Shown piece after piece: positions 14,606 to 38,292 of a stretch of DNA of 40,690 nucleotides (positions are counted from its first letter, which is position 1; the number at the start of each line of letters is the position of its first letter). The translations under genes and the position numbers were made by a program. The DNA is from Escherichia coli. Its GTDB lineage: Bacteria; Pseudomonadota; Gammaproteobacteria; Enterobacterales; Enterobacteriaceae. The stretch lies in the NCBI RefSeq assembly GCF_003334335.1, contig NZ_QOWQ01000038.1; one strand, given 5' to 3'. A model generated the notes under the pieces. It was given only the letters and a program-made list of their open reading frames with translations. It was not told the DNA's origin and searched no databases.

Positions 14606-14668
<63 letters not shown>

Positions 14669-33041: not shown

Positions 33042-33185
33042 ATGAATAACTCCAGTAAAACATCCACAGTACAGATTAAGCGTATTAAACCTTCAATTAT
33101 CTACCGTTTATTGCTGATTGGCCTCGGATCACCAATGGTGATTTACGGCCTGGTTCGCCCGCTCACCATCGAAACGCGAGATTAA
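33042..33185 (+). other. Candidate small ORF (47 aa from ATG 33042, 70 aa from ATG 32973) with one hydrophobic helix; unverified
   Basis: MNNSSKTSTVQIKRIKPSIIYRLLLIGLGSPMVIYGLVRPLTIETRD. No convincing Shine-Dalgarno upstream of any in-frame start. Confidence 0.2.
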
Positions 33186-33290
33186 ACTCCTGACAAAACA
33201 CGCCCCAGAAACGTACTTCTGTTGGCGTAGTCTGGGTTATTGCGCACGTAGGTTTAAAACGTAAATTGTAACAACGTGCGCTTTGTTTAT

Positions 33291-33372
33291 GCCGGATGCG
33301 GCGTGTACGCCTTATCCGGCCTACGGTCAGGTTCCCGTAGGCATGATAAGACGCGTAAGCGTCGCATCAGGC
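33291..33372. repeat. BIME: two inverted REP elements downstream of aldB
   Basis: gccggatgcggcgtgtacgccttatccggcctac (33291-33324) and gtaggcatgataagacgcgtaagcgtcgcatcaggc (33337-33372). Confidence 0.65.
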
Positions 33373-33403
33373 AATGAATACCCAATGCGACCAGCTTCTT
33401 ATA

Positions 33404-34942
33404 TCAGAACAGCCCCAACGGTTTATCCGAGTAGCTCACCAGCAGGCACTTGGTTTGCTGGTAATGCTCCAGCATCATCTTGTGGGTTTCGCGACCGATA
33501 CCTGATTGTTTGTAGCCACCAAACGCCGCATGTGCCGGGTAAGCGTGATAACAGTTGGTCCACACGCGCCCAGCCTGTATGCCGCGCCCCATCTTATAGG
33601 CCAGATTACCGTTGCGGCTCCAGACGCCCGCGCCCAGGCCATATTGCGTATCGTTCGCCAGCTCCAGCGCTTCTTCCATCGTTTTGAAGGTGGTCACCGC
33701 CAGCACCGGGCCAAAAATCTCCTCCTGGAACACCCGCATATTGTTCTGACCAAACAGAATCGTCGGTTCGAGGTAGTAGCCGTCTTTCAGTTCACCTTCC
33801 AGCAGCTTGCGCCGCCCGCCTGTGAGCACGTCAGCGCCCTCTTTTTTACCGATATCAATGTAGTTGAGGATGGTTTCCAGTTGCCCGTGAGAAACCTGCG
33901 CGCCCATTTGCGTCACGCTGTCGAGCGGGTTACCGCTACGAATGCTTTCGACACGGCGGATGGCGCGTTCCATAAAGCGTTCGTAGATAGATTCCTGCAC
34001 TAAAGCACGACTCGGACAGGTGCAAACTTCGCCCTGGTTAAAGGCAAACAGTGCAAAGCCTTCCAGCGCTTTATCGAAAAAGGCATCTTCTTCATCCATC
34101 ACATCAGCAAAGAAGATATTTGGCGACTTACCGCCCAACTCCAGCGTCACCGGAATAATGTTTTGCGTTGCGTATTGCATAATTTGTTGGCCCACTTCCG
34201 TTGAGCCGGTAAACGCCACTTTGGCGATGCGTTTCGAGGTCGCCAGATATTCGCCAATTACCCCACCTGCGCCATTGACCACGTTCACCACGCCCGGCGG
34301 CAGTAAATCACCGACAATTTCCATTAGCAGCAGTACAGAAAGCGGGGTAAGACGTGCGGGTTTCAGCACCACACAGTTGCCCGCCGCCAGCGCGGGAGCC
34401 ATTTTCCAGCTCGCCATCAGCAGCGGGAAGTTCCACGGGATAATCTGCCCCACCACGCCTAACGGTTCATGGAAATGATAGGCCACGGTTTCGCTATCAA
34501 CTTCACTGATCCCACCTTCCTGCGCCCGAATACACGAGGCGAAATAGCGGAAATGGTCAATCGCCAGCGGTACATCCGCAGCACTGGTTTCGCGAATGGG
34601 TTTGCCGTTATCCCAGGTTTCAGCTGTCGCTAACAGCTCGAGGTTTTGTTCCATTCGATCGGCAATCTTAAACAGAATCGCCGCACGATCCTGCACCGAG
34701 GTGTGCGCCCATTTATCTTTCACTTTGTGCGCAGCATCCAGCGCCAGATCGATGTCTCGTTTGCCCGAAGACGCCACTTCGCACAGCAGCTGCCCGGTCA
34801 CCGGCGTCAGATTCTGGTAATACTCGCCGTCGGCAGGGGCTACCCATTCGCCGCCAATAAAGTTGTCATAGCGGGCTTTTAACTTGAGGGGGAAACCATA
34901 CTCGCCGGGCTTAATCTGTGCTGAAGGGGGATTATTGGTCAT
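33404..34942 (-). CDS. aldB: Aldehyde dehydrogenase B (NADP-dependent)
   Basis: ORF-track frame 33404..35080. Start placed at the ATG giving [22 protein letters not shown]... (512 aa). Confidence 0.93.
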
Positions 34943-35106
34943 GATCGTCTCCTTGCGGTGTGAGGTATAACAAGGGTAGACGTGACTGGCGAAATCTTCG
35001 CCAGTCGGTAACAGCTTTACGACAGCTATCACGAATTTACGGGCAAGGGTTACAGAGATAGTTGAAAAAGCGGCTGACAATTTGCCAGCCGTTGTGGAAA
35101 TGATGA

Positions 35107-36258
35107 TTACATCGCTGCGCGATAAATCGCCACAATTTCTTCGTGAGTTGCCTGGATCGGGTTAGTAAAGCCACAGGCATCTTTCAGGGCATTAGTCGCC
35201 AATACCGCGAAATCTTCTTCTTTCACGTTCAGGTCGCGTAGGCCTGCCGGGATATCCACTTTCTTCGCCAGTTCACGGATGGCGTTAATGCAGGCTTCAG
35301 CACCTTCCGCGTCGTTTTTACCTGTCACGTTCACGCCCATTGCAGCGGCACAGTCACGCAGACGTGCAGCGGCGACTTTGCTGTTGAATACCTGAACGTG
35401 CGGCAGCAAAACGGCGTTACATACACCGTGTGGCAGGTTGTAGAAACCGCCCAGCTGGTGCGCCATCGCATGAACATAACCCAGAGAAGCATTATTGAAC
35501 GCCATACCGGCGAGGAACTGGGCATAAGCCATTGCTTCACGCGCTTTCGCATTACTGCCATCTTCAACGGCTAACGGCAGGTTTTCGGCAATCATGGTCA
35601 CGGCTTTCAGTGCACAAGCGTCAGTGATCGGCGTGGCGGCAATAGAAACATATGCTTCGATAGCGTGCGTTAAGGCATCCATACCCGTTGCGGCGGTCAG
35701 TGACTTCGGCATACCAATCATCAGAGAGGAGTCATTGACAGAAAGCAGCGGAGTGACATGTTTATCAACAATCGCCATTTTGATATGACGCGCTTCGTCA
35801 GTGATGATGCAGAAACGGGTCATTTCAGAGGCCGTACCCGCCGTGGTATTGATGGCGATCATCGGCAGCTGCGGTTTTGCAGAGCGGTCAACGCCTTCGT
35901 AATCGCGAATATCGCCGCCATTGGCTGCCACCAGCGCAATACCTTTTGCGCAGTCGTGTGGAGAACCACCGCCTAAGGAGATCACGCTATCGCAATTATT
36001 CTCTTTAAGTAATTTCAAACCTGCGGCGACGTTTTCCGTGGTGGGGTTAGGTTGGGTGCCATCATAAATAACGCTAAAAATATTGCGTTCTTCCAGTGCT
36101 TTTTGCACATCGCCCGCCATACCTAATTTCGTTAACATATTGTCAGTGACAATTAAGGTACGGGTAAATCCATAATCTGCCATCATATTCATTGCATCAG
36201 TCAATGAATCAGCGCCGATGACATTCACAGAAGGAATAAAGAACGTTGAAGCTGCCAT
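35107..36258 (-). CDS. yiaY: Iron-containing (group III) alcohol dehydrogenase
   Basis: 383 aa, Fe-ADH fold motifs ([11 protein letters not shown]; His-rich metal site [10 protein letters not shown]). Confidence 0.9.
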
Positions 36259-36447
36259 AACACACTCCTGAAAGTGTAAAAAAGGGCGGGCAGCTTACTG
36301 AGGATTTTCATTCGAAAATATGATCAGTATTATTGATTATCAAAATTAATCTAATAAAAAGCACATTGTATTCATTAAACAATGTGCTTTTTTTAAATTC
36401 ATAAGAATTTTGTATTAATTTATTTTAAAACTTAATTAATCATTTCC

Positions 36448-38292
36448 TTATTTTTCCGGAAATAATAATGCGTCGCGCAATAAATGATCATTTCCACGAC
36501 GACGCGTAAAGCCAATGCGGTCAAAATATTCCAGAATCTGAATTGCCAGCTTTCGGCCTACGCCTAAGCGATCGCGGAAATCCGCCGCGCAGGTTGAACC
36601 ACACTCCTGATCGAGATCGCGGATCATATTGGCAAACTCGACAATCCGATCGTTACGGTAATAACGATCTTTAACGATCGCGGTAATTATTCCTTGCTGC
36701 GCCGCCTGGCGTAGAGTCAGGCGCATTGCCTGCTCGTCGGTTCCCGTCTCTTTTGCCAGGTCACGCACCCACCACGGTTCGTCACCAAACAGTGGCTCTG
36801 CTTTTTGCCAGATGGCCTGCTGCTCTTCGCTGAAGCCCGCTTTGTGATCTGGCAGATGCAGCCAGCCGTGATGGCTGTGGATGTCGCCGCTTTCGCGCAT
36901 CTTTTCAATCAGCAACAGTACCAGCGCTTCATCTTCCATTGGCAACGCCATACGTCGCAGACGTTCGCGCCCAGGGCCAGGTTCATCGCGATGTTGCTCA
37001 TGATAAGTCGCTAATGTGTCGAGAATTTTCCGCTGCCAGCGGGCGGCAACCGGCGCATTCAACAAGCTATAACCAGCCTGAATATAACCAGGCTGTTGCA
37101 GCAATTCGCGCATCCCTTCGCCGTTGAGCTGGCGCGCCCAGGCGAAATCCGCAAGGTTAACCGCGCCGCGTTCCAGATGAACAGATAACGCATCGGCATC
37201 GCTCTGCGCCCGTGCAAGAGACGCCAGCCATTGCAGATATTCCGGCTTACGTTTACCGCGACGCGGCGGGTTAAGCATCACGACGCGCGCTCCGGCCAGC
37301 GTGTTGCGGGCAGAGATATCGCGCAATACCAGGCGGTCGTTATCTGCCAGCCATAACGGGGTGTCGAAGACCAGTTCAGCAAGGTTATCTTCCAGCAGTG
37401 AAACGCGTCCCGTGACGTGGCTGGCGGCGTGGTGAATATGCAGCGGCTGCCACTGGGTCAGCGGTGTATGGGTTTGAAGCTCGACAATCACCCGTGTGAA
37501 CGGCTCTGGCGGCACATCGGCAAGCAGCCAGTCGCCACGGTTAATCTGCTCTTTTTCCGCATCACCCGCGATGTTAAGCGCGATACGCTGCCCGGCATTG
37601 GCGGTTTCTGTTGGCTGGTTTTGCGCATGCAGCGCACGTACACGCATCGGTTTATTTACACCAGTCAGCCAGAGTGAATCGCCTACCTTCACTTCCCCGC
37701 TTAACGCCGTACCGGTGACGACCAGCCCGGCACCTTTTACGGTAAATGCGCGGTCAATCGCGAGGCGGAAACTATGTTGGCTGGCGTGCTCGCGTTCCGG
37801 CAACTGAAGCAGATGCTCGCGCAGGGCATCCATTCCCCGACCTTCGGTTGCTGCGGTGATAAACAGTTTTGCCTCAGCAAAACCGTATTCCCGCAGAACC
37901 TCCTTTACCTGGCGTTCAACCTCATCAACACGCGCTTCGTCCACGCGATCGGCTTTGGTCAGCGCCACTGTCAGCATCGGGTTACCGGTCAGCTGCAAAA
38001 TCGCCAGATGCTCACGGGTCTGTGCCATCACGCCGTCATCGCACGCCACCACCAACAGCGCGTGATCGATACCACCAACGCCCGCCAGCATGTTGGAAAG
38101 AAACTTTTCATGACCGGGAACGTCGATAAAACCAGGCACGCGACCATCCGGCTGCGGCCAGTAGGCATAGCCGAGATCGATGGTCATGCCGCGCTTTTTT
38201 TCTTCCGGCAGACGGTCAGCATTTACGCCAGTAATCGCCTGCAATAAGGTTGTTTTGCCGTGGTCAACGTGTCCGGCAGTCGCAATAATCAT
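36448..38292 (-). CDS. selB: Selenocysteine-specific translation elongation factor
   Basis: 614 aa, N-terminal GTPase ([22 protein letters not shown]) with a long C-terminal extension. Confidence 0.95.

Follow-up and report, generated by a model that had tools for sequence, protein, structure and literature searches.

Adjacent but probably separately transcribed: the yiaY and aldB dehydrogenase genes of Escherichia coli

Does the close spacing of yiaY and aldB, two dehydrogenase genes of Escherichia coli, reflect a module that oxidizes an alcohol to an acid in two steps from a shared transcript? The whole stretch of DNA that we analysed (40,690 nucleotides; the window) is from the E. coli chromosome, and the region matches many chromosomes of this species at 100% identity, the annotated gene order being yiaW–aldB–yiaY–selB–selA. 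Open reading frames and the RefSeq annotation place yiaY, encoding an iron-containing (type III) alcohol dehydrogenase of 383 residues, at 35107–36258 and aldB, encoding an ExaC-type acetaldehyde dehydrogenase of 512 residues, at 33404–34942, both on the minus strand and separated by a spacer of 164 bp (34943–35106). A preliminary description had given these identities, this order, the common strand and the 164 bp gap, all of which are borne out by the annotation, the reading frames and the domains. The DNA and annotation show no difference from aldB (b3588) and yiaY (b3589) of E. coli K-12; the window carries the K-12-like form of the locus, lacking a fic gene and containing the published aldB -10 hexamer. 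The neighbourhood is thus a real but ordinary and already known E. coli locus. The anatomy of the locus, its conservation, its polymorphism in the population and the family membership of the two proteins were all established in the present analysis, and our reading of them is that yiaY and aldB are probably adjacent but separate transcription units, with enzymes that plausibly meet at acetaldehyde as alternative fates of that compound.

The program-made list of open reading frames contains a longer aldB frame that starts with a TTG codon at 35080. The annotated ATG at 34942 lies just downstream of an invariant AAGGAGA and conservation among relatives begins at 34942, which together place the aldB start at this ATG rather than at the TTG.

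YiaY belongs to the iron-containing (type III) alcohol dehydrogenases by both of its domains and by its ligand and GGGS positions. Asp194, His198, His263 and His277 (numbering of ADH2 from Zymomonas mobilis), which we take to be the metal ligands, and GGGS, presumably the nucleotide loop, are identical in YiaY, as is D39. The Pfam domains PF00465 (E = 7.7e-48) and PF25137 (E = 2.3e-83) span residues 9–383, and alignment to Z. mobilis ADH2 (PDB entry 3OWO), with its conserved NAD and iron ligand positions, gives 63.6% identity across 382 residues. The likeness does not extend to expression: ADH2 is a major fermentative enzyme, whereas standard aerobic cultures of E. coli leave yiaY silent. The protein also scores 866.6 bits against the NCBIfam model PRK09860 (L-threonine dehydrogenase; cutoff 581), and the name L-threonine dehydrogenase in RefSeq and NCBIfam goes back to a single biochemical report of this activity (Ma et al., 2014).

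These properties bear on the view that the adjacency is functionally meaningless in E. coli, YiaY being a dehydrogenase of threonine or some other hydroxy compound and the gene order being inherited only. The reported threonine dehydrogenase activity fits this view, as does the very weak or absent acetaldehyde or isobutyraldehyde reductase activity of overproduced YiaY in extracts, with acetaldehyde marking a difference from ADH2; on the other hand, ADH2 is a genuine ethanol dehydrogenase, and YiaY shares 64% identity and the active-site residues with it. It is general knowledge that iron alcohol dehydrogenases are oxygen-labile, so the negative assays in aerobic extracts are weak evidence.

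AldB contains the Pfam domain PF00171 (Aldedh; E = 2.3e-158) and its translation includes the catalytic Glu and Cys motifs ELGGKSP and EVCTCPSR. It passes the NCBIfam ExaC equivalog model NF050026 (914.3 against a cutoff of 900), and among solved structures 9fm9 and that of ExaC itself (9koi; E = 1.7e-232) come closest. The exa/ped cluster of Pseudomonas, to which ExaC/PedI belongs, also has an iron alcohol dehydrogenase homologue, ErcA (which goes by 'YiaY' in P. putida), near the aldehyde dehydrogenase. The comparison ends there: ErcA partners a histidine kinase in regulation, whereas YiaY of E. coli scores below the cutoff of the ErcA model (408.8 bits; cutoff 550) and has selB and aldB as neighbours, with no adjoining ErcS-type histidine kinase. 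Primary alcohol oxidation in the Pseudomonas cluster is carried out by PQQ enzymes, and none of those genes is found at the E. coli locus.

The two-step module of the preliminary description is therefore supported in part, as the enzyme families fit it. The likeness of YiaY to ADH2, the ExaC match of AldB and the recurrence of such gene pairs in other species (see below) make a link through acetaldehyde plausible, and we infer both that the enzymes share this intermediate and in which direction YiaY works. A shared substrate is nevertheless unproven, given the weak or absent reductase activity in extracts and the threonine dehydrogenase annotation.

The regulators and expression conditions of the two genes are taken from the literature and can be set beside the sequence. 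Upstream of yiaY, a terminator hairpin following selB at 36356..36392 (minus strand; 14 bp stem and U tract; -16.8 kcal/mol, z = -5.6) divides selAB from yiaY and is kept in the upstream regions of Escherichia and Citrobacter. The spacer upstream of yiaY is very AT-rich (G+C 0.249), and a consensus scan gave a candidate promoter within it, TTGATA-17-TATTTT at 36315..36343 on the minus strand, which includes a block, GATCATATTTT (36325–36315), shared by Escherichia, Citrobacter, Pseudocitrobacter and Kluyvera. Published data describe yiaY as 'not transcribed' in aerobic MG1655, as O2-dependent in an E. coli hns stpA mutant and as anaerobically induced in Shigella (log2 of 3.18) in an FNR-dependent manner. 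A possible direct FNR site upstream of yiaY, the E. coli sequence TTGATaatcAATAA, matches the consensus at 8/10 positions but is not conserved in Nissle 1917, E. albertii or Citrobacter. Control of yiaY by FNR may for this reason be indirect.

Downstream, a terminator scan identified an intrinsic terminator that begins 15 nt past the yiaY stop codon (35064..35091, minus strand), with a 9 bp stem, CGGCUGGCA/UGUCAGCCG, followed by CUUUUUC and a predicted folding energy of -14.6 kcal/mol (z = -4.5). In E. coli S1-ISR-02-A, Nissle 1917 and E. albertii the hairpin is retained, the changes there being compensatory or leaving the stem intact. No terminator was found between the genes in Citrobacter or Pseudocitrobacter, where the yiaY stop codon directly meets the aldB promoter, and the two genes may accordingly be co-transcribed in these genera. 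Intrinsic terminators leak, so some read-through from yiaY into aldB is possible. In the 3'-end mapping supplement of PMC7815308 the sole yiaY entry is an internal 3' end, and the SMRT-Cappable-seq supplements mention neither yiaY nor aldB.

The remainder of the spacer is filled by the published promoter of aldB, which RpoS, Crp and Fis control. A CRP-like site, cGTGA-N6-TCGtA, can be read at 35018..35033 (minus strand), its centre ∼60 bp before the transcription start inferred for aldB, and its GTGA and TCGTAAA are invariant in 11/11 enterobacterial sequences. Crp activates aldB, according to the title of Xu & Johnson (1995), and the site at 35018..35033 is the putative Crp site of the gene, an assignment that we made by its CRP-like sequence. 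Next to it, a perfect palindrome of 23 bp, GACTGGCGAA-GAT-TTCGCCAGTC (34984..35006), covers the -35 and spacer region of the promoter. Folded as RNA it gives -16.8 kcal/mol (z = -6.2); over 11 sequences 94.5% of its cells are paired, with two outer pairs changed on both sides, and there is no second copy elsewhere in the window. The -10 region, GTCTACCCTT (34972..34981, minus strand), is nearly invariant in the enterobacterial alignment. It has a C at -13, as is typical of RpoS promoters, and its hexamer TACCCT (34978–34973) is the one credited to Xu & Johnson (1995) in a table of PMC5650638. In the literature aldB is RpoS-dependent, Fis-repressed and Crp-activated, and both stationary phase and ethanol induce it.

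The Shine–Dalgarno sequence of aldB, AAGGAGA (34948..34954, minus strand; invariant in the alignment), is complementary to the -10 region, and the predicted hairpin has an energy of -11.1 kcal/mol (z = -3.1). As the -10 region is one of its arms, the Shine–Dalgarno sequence would be paired only in RNA begun upstream of the aldB promoter. The hairpin is predicted in 9/9 taxa with weak covariation (RNAalifold -0.18 kcal/mol); each arm is under other constraints, which accounts for the lack of covariation. We keep this ribosome-binding-site hairpin as a hypothesis.

The promoter block stays with aldB whatever lies upstream. It is conserved in nine enterobacterial taxa regardless of the upstream gene, including Kluyvera and Superficieibacter, in which that gene is on the opposite strand, and Pluralibacter, in which it is selB and not yiaY. 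The junction also varies within E. coli itself: in Nissle 1917 a Fic-family gene sits between yiaY and aldB, a fic gene occurs in 29% of the complete E. coli genomes (1576 of 5426) and the K-12-type spacer is found at a coverage of at least 80% in 3279 of the 5426. The adjacency is not conserved species-wide. A single operon would have neither a terminator nor an internal promoter between its genes, and this junction has the terminator (35091–35064) as well as the conserved aldB promoter block.

These observations weigh on the possibility that the pair is a functional operon in which transcripts read through a weak terminator from yiaY into aldB and the enzymes jointly oxidize ethanol or a short alcohol to the acid. 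The same strand and 164 bp distance, the consecutive chemistry of YiaY and AldB, the Citrobacter junction lacking a terminator and the eight other species loci in which related pairs of aldehyde and iron alcohol dehydrogenase genes adjoin on one strand would all suit an operon, and a consecutive action of YiaY and AldB on ethanol has already been proposed in print (bioRxiv 2021.07.26.453911). The yiaY terminator of E. coli is, however, strong and conserved across the genus, aldB retains its independent promoter, fic can come between the genes and the reported expression conditions of yiaY and aldB are opposite; in addition, read-through RNA is predicted to pair the aldB ribosome-binding site with the -10 region. 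We consider an operon of this kind unlikely. The sequence thus speaks against a shared transcript in E. coli, a point that the preliminary description had left unclear. That description had also named what would refute its module, namely independent promoters, distinct expression conditions and unrelated substrates, and, with the yiaY terminator, the conserved promoter of aldB, the differing published expression and the fic gene, this is largely the situation in E. coli.

The pairing has counterparts among distant relatives in other Proteobacteria. Of the genes that neighbour YiaY relatives, only an AldB-type aldehyde dehydrogenase recurs across lineages, being found on the same strand in 15 of 79 species loci. 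The chance expectation is ∼0.3%, a rough estimate for one gene lying no more than 6 kb away in either direction (12 kb of a ∼4.5 Mb genome), and the recurrence is so far above this value that the adjacency of yiaY and aldB exceeds chance. The view that the adjacency carries no function, introduced above, agrees with the ∼60 of the 79 loci in which the YiaY relative has no AldB nearby, but it sits poorly with a pairing that unrelated lineages show repeatedly, in two different gene orders; taken with the enzyme data, we find it improbable.

The relatives also raise the matter of sigma-54. A sigma-54 activator and promoter precede the aldehyde and then the alcohol dehydrogenase gene in Zobellella, Oceanisphaera, a MAG and Pandoraea. 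In the three named genera the clusters lie on one strand, with 62–68% identity to AldB and 69–71% to YiaY, in the reverse order to E. coli (the aldehyde dehydrogenase first), and are driven by a canonical -24/-12 promoter together with a sigma-54 enhancer-binding protein that is divergently encoded. E. coli aldB differs in having neither: no activator gene adjoins it in the annotated neighbourhood, and of the sigma-54 consensus TGGCAC-N5-TTGC its promoter shows only the GG-N10-GC geometry (TGGCGA-N5-TCGC). We rejected the palindrome as a functional sigma-54 promoter, as sigma-54 ChIP-seq shows no site at aldB (S4 table) and RNA-seq gives no support, the supply of RpoN lowering aldB expression from 199 to 66. 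The idea that the palindrome is a sigma-54 relic was also set aside; the promoters of the relatives lie at -70 to -109 from the ATG and the palindrome at -60 to -64.

A broader version of this history is that the pair descends from a module of aldehyde and iron alcohol dehydrogenases under sigma-54 and an activator, which decayed and in Escherichia was split into two insulated units. The yiaY gene would then have passed to an anaerobic regime and aldB to stationary phase, controlled by RpoS, Crp and Fis; the genus-specific terminator, together with the hairpin of ribosome-binding site and -10 region that would form only in read-through RNA, would be the insulators, and the 23 bp palindrome over the -35 would serve as operator for a regulator that has yet to be linked to aldB. 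We regard this scenario as doubtful.

Beyond aldB, the preliminary description had noted a BIME, and this element is present, beginning 30 nt past the aldB stop codon. It consists of two REP units in inverted orientation (∼33288–33326 and ∼33335–33373; the whole at 33288..33373), and thus has the at least two extragenic REP units of alternating orientation that define a BIME. Its predicted fold has an energy of -48.6 kcal/mol (z = -7.9), and REP units of the same type occur again at 14635 and 19463 in the window, where the chance expectation is 0. The match to the REP-derived Rfam family naRNA4 is below threshold, and an Rfam search of the region returned nothing beyond such sub-threshold REP-related matches.

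In the arrangement of separate units that we favour, yiaY would be transcribed from its own promoter in the AT-rich spacer past the selB terminator, silent aerobically and switched on without oxygen, and its transcript would end at the intrinsic terminator 15 nt past the stop codon. Transcription of aldB would start from the promoter in the remaining spacer, with its CRP-like site, palindrome and RpoS-type -10, would be induced in stationary phase or by ethanol and would run into the BIME. The two enzymes would most likely act on acetaldehyde in different regimes, AldB oxidizing it to acetate and YiaY reducing it in the absence of oxygen. They probably do not form one co-expressed pathway from alcohol to acid in E. 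coli.

The locus belongs to the textbook-annotated part of E. coli K-12, and its importance beyond housekeeping is small. Of minor, specialist interest are the junction that is polymorphic for fic, the conserved palindrome in the aldB promoter and the sigma-54 control in distant relatives. The useful outcome is a negative one: sequence, comparative and published expression evidence argues against treating yiaY–aldB as an operon, which is relevant to genome-scale models of operons and regulons and to engineers who delete or overexpress these dehydrogenases.

In RefSeq the locus reads yiaW-aldB-yiaY-selB-selA, with yiaY (35107-36258, 383 aa) and aldB (33404-34942, 512 aa) both on the minus strand and separated by exactly 164 bp. 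The mechanical ORF list gives a longer aldB that begins at a TTG (35080); the RefSeq annotation uses the ATG at 34942, where an invariant AAGGAGA lies upstream and the conservation of the protein across species begins. A BIME follows 30 nt past the aldB stop codon and consists of two inversely oriented REP units (33288-33373). Two further copies of the same REP type occur in the window, where none are expected by chance; the match of the BIME to the REP-derived Rfam family naRNA4 is sub-threshold. The preliminary description was thus right in every detail as to the identity, order, strand and spacing of the two genes and the BIME. Many E. coli chromosomes are 100% identical to the 3.9 kb region around the pair, and most of this region is found in 5346 of the 5426 complete E. 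coli genomes. Beyond the BIME, a 47-codon plus-strand ORF (33042-33185) convergent with aldB is annotated as the hypothetical protein WP_001066080.1, for which NCBIfam gives no match.

Domain searches found both iron alcohol dehydrogenase domains in YiaY and an Aldedh protein over the full length of AldB. YiaY passes the NCBIfam equivalog PRK09860 'L-threonine dehydrogenase' (866.6 bits, cutoff 581) but not the models of lactaldehyde reductase, ErcA or EutG. The nearest solved structure is Zymomonas mobilis alcohol dehydrogenase 2 (3OWO; E = 5.9e-159), with 243 of 382 residues identical; D39, the GGGS loop, D194, H198, H263 and H277, which we take to be the NAD and iron ligands in that structure, are all kept in the alignment. 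AldB passes the ExaC acetaldehyde dehydrogenase equivalog model (914.3 bits, cutoff 900) and matches the ExaC structure 9koi (E = 1.7e-232). By family the two proteins are a classic pair, predicted to take ethanol to acetaldehyde and on to acetate. Iron alcohol dehydrogenases are oxygen-labile, so a negative assay of YiaY in extracts is weak evidence. Extracts of cells overproducing YiaY had 'very weak or no' reductase activity with acetaldehyde and isobutyraldehyde (PMC3439341), which speaks weakly against a simple ethanol role, and threonine dehydrogenase activity of YiaY has been noted (bioRxiv 2021.07.26.453911).

The spacer probably holds the end of one transcription unit and the start of another. 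The terminator scan placed an intrinsic terminator on the minus strand 15 nt past the yiaY stop codon (35091-35064), a 9 bp G+C-rich hairpin followed by CUUUUUC, with a folding energy of -14.6 kcal/mol that none of 200 shuffles equalled. The spacer beyond it is the aldB promoter: a CRP-like site, cGTGA-N6-TCGtA (35033-35018), a perfect 23 bp palindrome, GACTGGCGAA-GAT-TTCGCCAGTC (35006-34984), over the -35 and spacer region, the -10 region GTCTACCCTT (34981-34972) and, as the last element of the block, the Shine-Dalgarno sequence. The -10 region contains the hexamer TACCCT, which a review table credits to Xu & Johnson 1995 (PMC5650638). If transcription starts ∼7 nt past this hexamer, the CRP-like site would be centred at about -60, a class I position.

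The palindrome spans about -40 to -18. It is kept in 11 enterobacterial sequences from nine taxa, with 94.5% of cells paired and the two outer pairs altered symmetrically on both sides. It may correspond to a Fis site of Xu & Johnson, whose abstract reportedly lists five sites for Fis and one for Crp at aldB; it could also be an operator for an unknown dimeric regulator, or a hairpin within read-through RNA. In its GG-N10-GC geometry the palindrome is similar to a sigma-54 promoter, but the S4 table of a sigma-54 ChIP-seq/RNA-seq study has no site ID for aldB, aldB expression drops when RpoN is supplied, and an apparent positional match to the real sigma-54 promoters of relatives proved to be an artefact. 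The -10 region (GTCTACCCTTG) is also complementary to the Shine-Dalgarno region (CAAGGAGAC), giving 11 pairs at 34944-34982 (-11.1 kcal/mol, z = -3.1). This hairpin is predicted in nine of nine taxa with negligible covariation support. It could form only in RNA begun upstream of the aldB promoter, and in such read-through transcripts it might hide the ribosome-binding site and block translation of aldB.

Expression separates the genes as well. In Shigella flexneri yiaY is induced anaerobically (log2 3.18) and falls in an fnr mutant (-2.73; PMC4229854), and the list of O2-dependent genes for an E. coli hns stpA mutant includes it, beside glpABC, ttdA and citCDF (PMC3688515 Table S11). The spacer upstream of yiaY is 25% G+C, which would fit H-NS silencing; an FNR-like site there matches eight of ten consensus positions in E. 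coli, and its conservation was not seen in the relatives compared. Expression of aldB rises with ethanol and as cells enter stationary phase, and its promoter is RpoS-dependent (PMC5650638). The preliminary description had proposed a potential two-step oxidation module, left a shared transcript unclear and named independent promoters with differing expression as part of the outcome against it; this is what the literature reports for yiaY versus aldB, and the operon reading is not supported.

Several other features lie upstream of yiaY. The 3' end of selB (36570-36676) carries seven GATC (Dam) sites within ∼107 bp, fitting the 'selB Dam site cluster', at which RNA polymerase occupancy is described as dam-dependent (PMC11741368). 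A further conserved GATC (36325-36322) is inside the candidate yiaY promoter. Directly past the selB stop codon and before its terminator hairpin, an AT-rich motif, ATTAATT...AATTAAT(ACAAAAT) (36395-36447), is kept from Escherichia to Kluyvera.

We fetched 80 species loci encoding close YiaY relatives. Four Citrobacter species and Pseudocitrobacter have yiaY then aldB with a spacer of just ∼92 bp, in which there is no terminator and a CRP-like site abuts the yiaY stop codon; E. coli therefore has ∼72 extra bases, terminator included. E. albertii has an equivalent hairpin and T tract, and the E. coli variant S1-ISR-02-A preserves the stem via a compensatory change. Kluyvera and Superficieibacter carry a gene of opposite strand between yiaY and aldB, and Pluralibacter has the order selB-aldB-yiaY. 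In all these arrangements the promoter block (GTGA...TCGTAAA, palindrome, GTCTACCCTT, AAGGAGA) remains with aldB: the promoter is a property of aldB, not of the pair.

Within E. coli, just 3279 of 5426 complete genomes cover a 211 nt junction probe to at least 80%; among the others, many have a match that begins directly past the terminator. Nissle 1917 (L084 4582-6113) has a same-strand 432-codon Fic-family gene (HPFRDGNGRTSR motif) between yiaY and aldB, and also lacks the yiaT-yiaW genes downstream of aldB. The fic gene was detected in 1576 of 5426 complete genomes, O157:H7 among them, its position being confirmed for the listed examples only. The junction breaks at AACTATCTC (35055-35064), and in a third variant (L085) a short part is left of the ACTATCTCAAAA...TTTTGAGATAGT palindromes that stand upstream of fic. 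The K-12-like junction resembles the product of a deletion between TATCTC repeats. Given the fic variants and the probe coverage, adjacency is not fixed even within E. coli. Two natural isolates with intact aldB carry insertion sequences (L082 4102-5082 and L083 3649-4811): GDSC2BY4G has ISKpn26 (IS5-like) in the selB-yiaY spacer, and in TUM12357 yiaY is interrupted by IS3.

Clustering of every ORF lying up to 3.5 kb from the yiaY relatives showed the ALDH family to be the sole neighbour common to several lineages; every other cluster was lineage-specific synteny. AldB-type genes (62-97% identity) are same-strand in 15 of 79 non-E. coli loci, seven (all Enterobacteriaceae) with yiaY first and eight with aldB first: Pluralibacter, Zobellella (two), Oceanisphaera, a gammaproteobacterial MAG, Rhodoferax, Pandoraea and Pseudaquidulcibacter. 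The pairs of Zobellella, Oceanisphaera, the MAG and Pandoraea each adjoin a divergently oriented gene for a sigma-54 enhancer-binding protein. Their ALDH gene has a canonical -24/-12 promoter (CTGGCAC-N5-TTGCA type) in front of it and is followed by a hairpin and the yiaY-like gene in a three-gene alcohol/aldehyde cluster (L032 2397-7152; also L033, L044, L052 and L068). The gene order is reversed relative to E. coli, whose arrangement has lost any dedicated regulator. The ALDH/Fe-ADH linkage is real and probably old.

The pairing is thus correctly located, more than chance and already known, and in E. coli yiaY and aldB are probably separate transcription units. yiaY would be transcribed from its own AT-rich promoter, active without oxygen, as far as the terminator at 35064-35091, and aldB from an RpoS/Crp/Fis-controlled promoter, active in stationary phase or with ethanol, its transcript ending in the BIME. 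A biochemical link is plausible though unproven, and we put the chances that acetaldehyde is the shared intermediate at about even. Acetaldehyde would then be common to the two enzymes as a point of alternative fates under different redox regimes, not part of one co-induced oxidation pathway.
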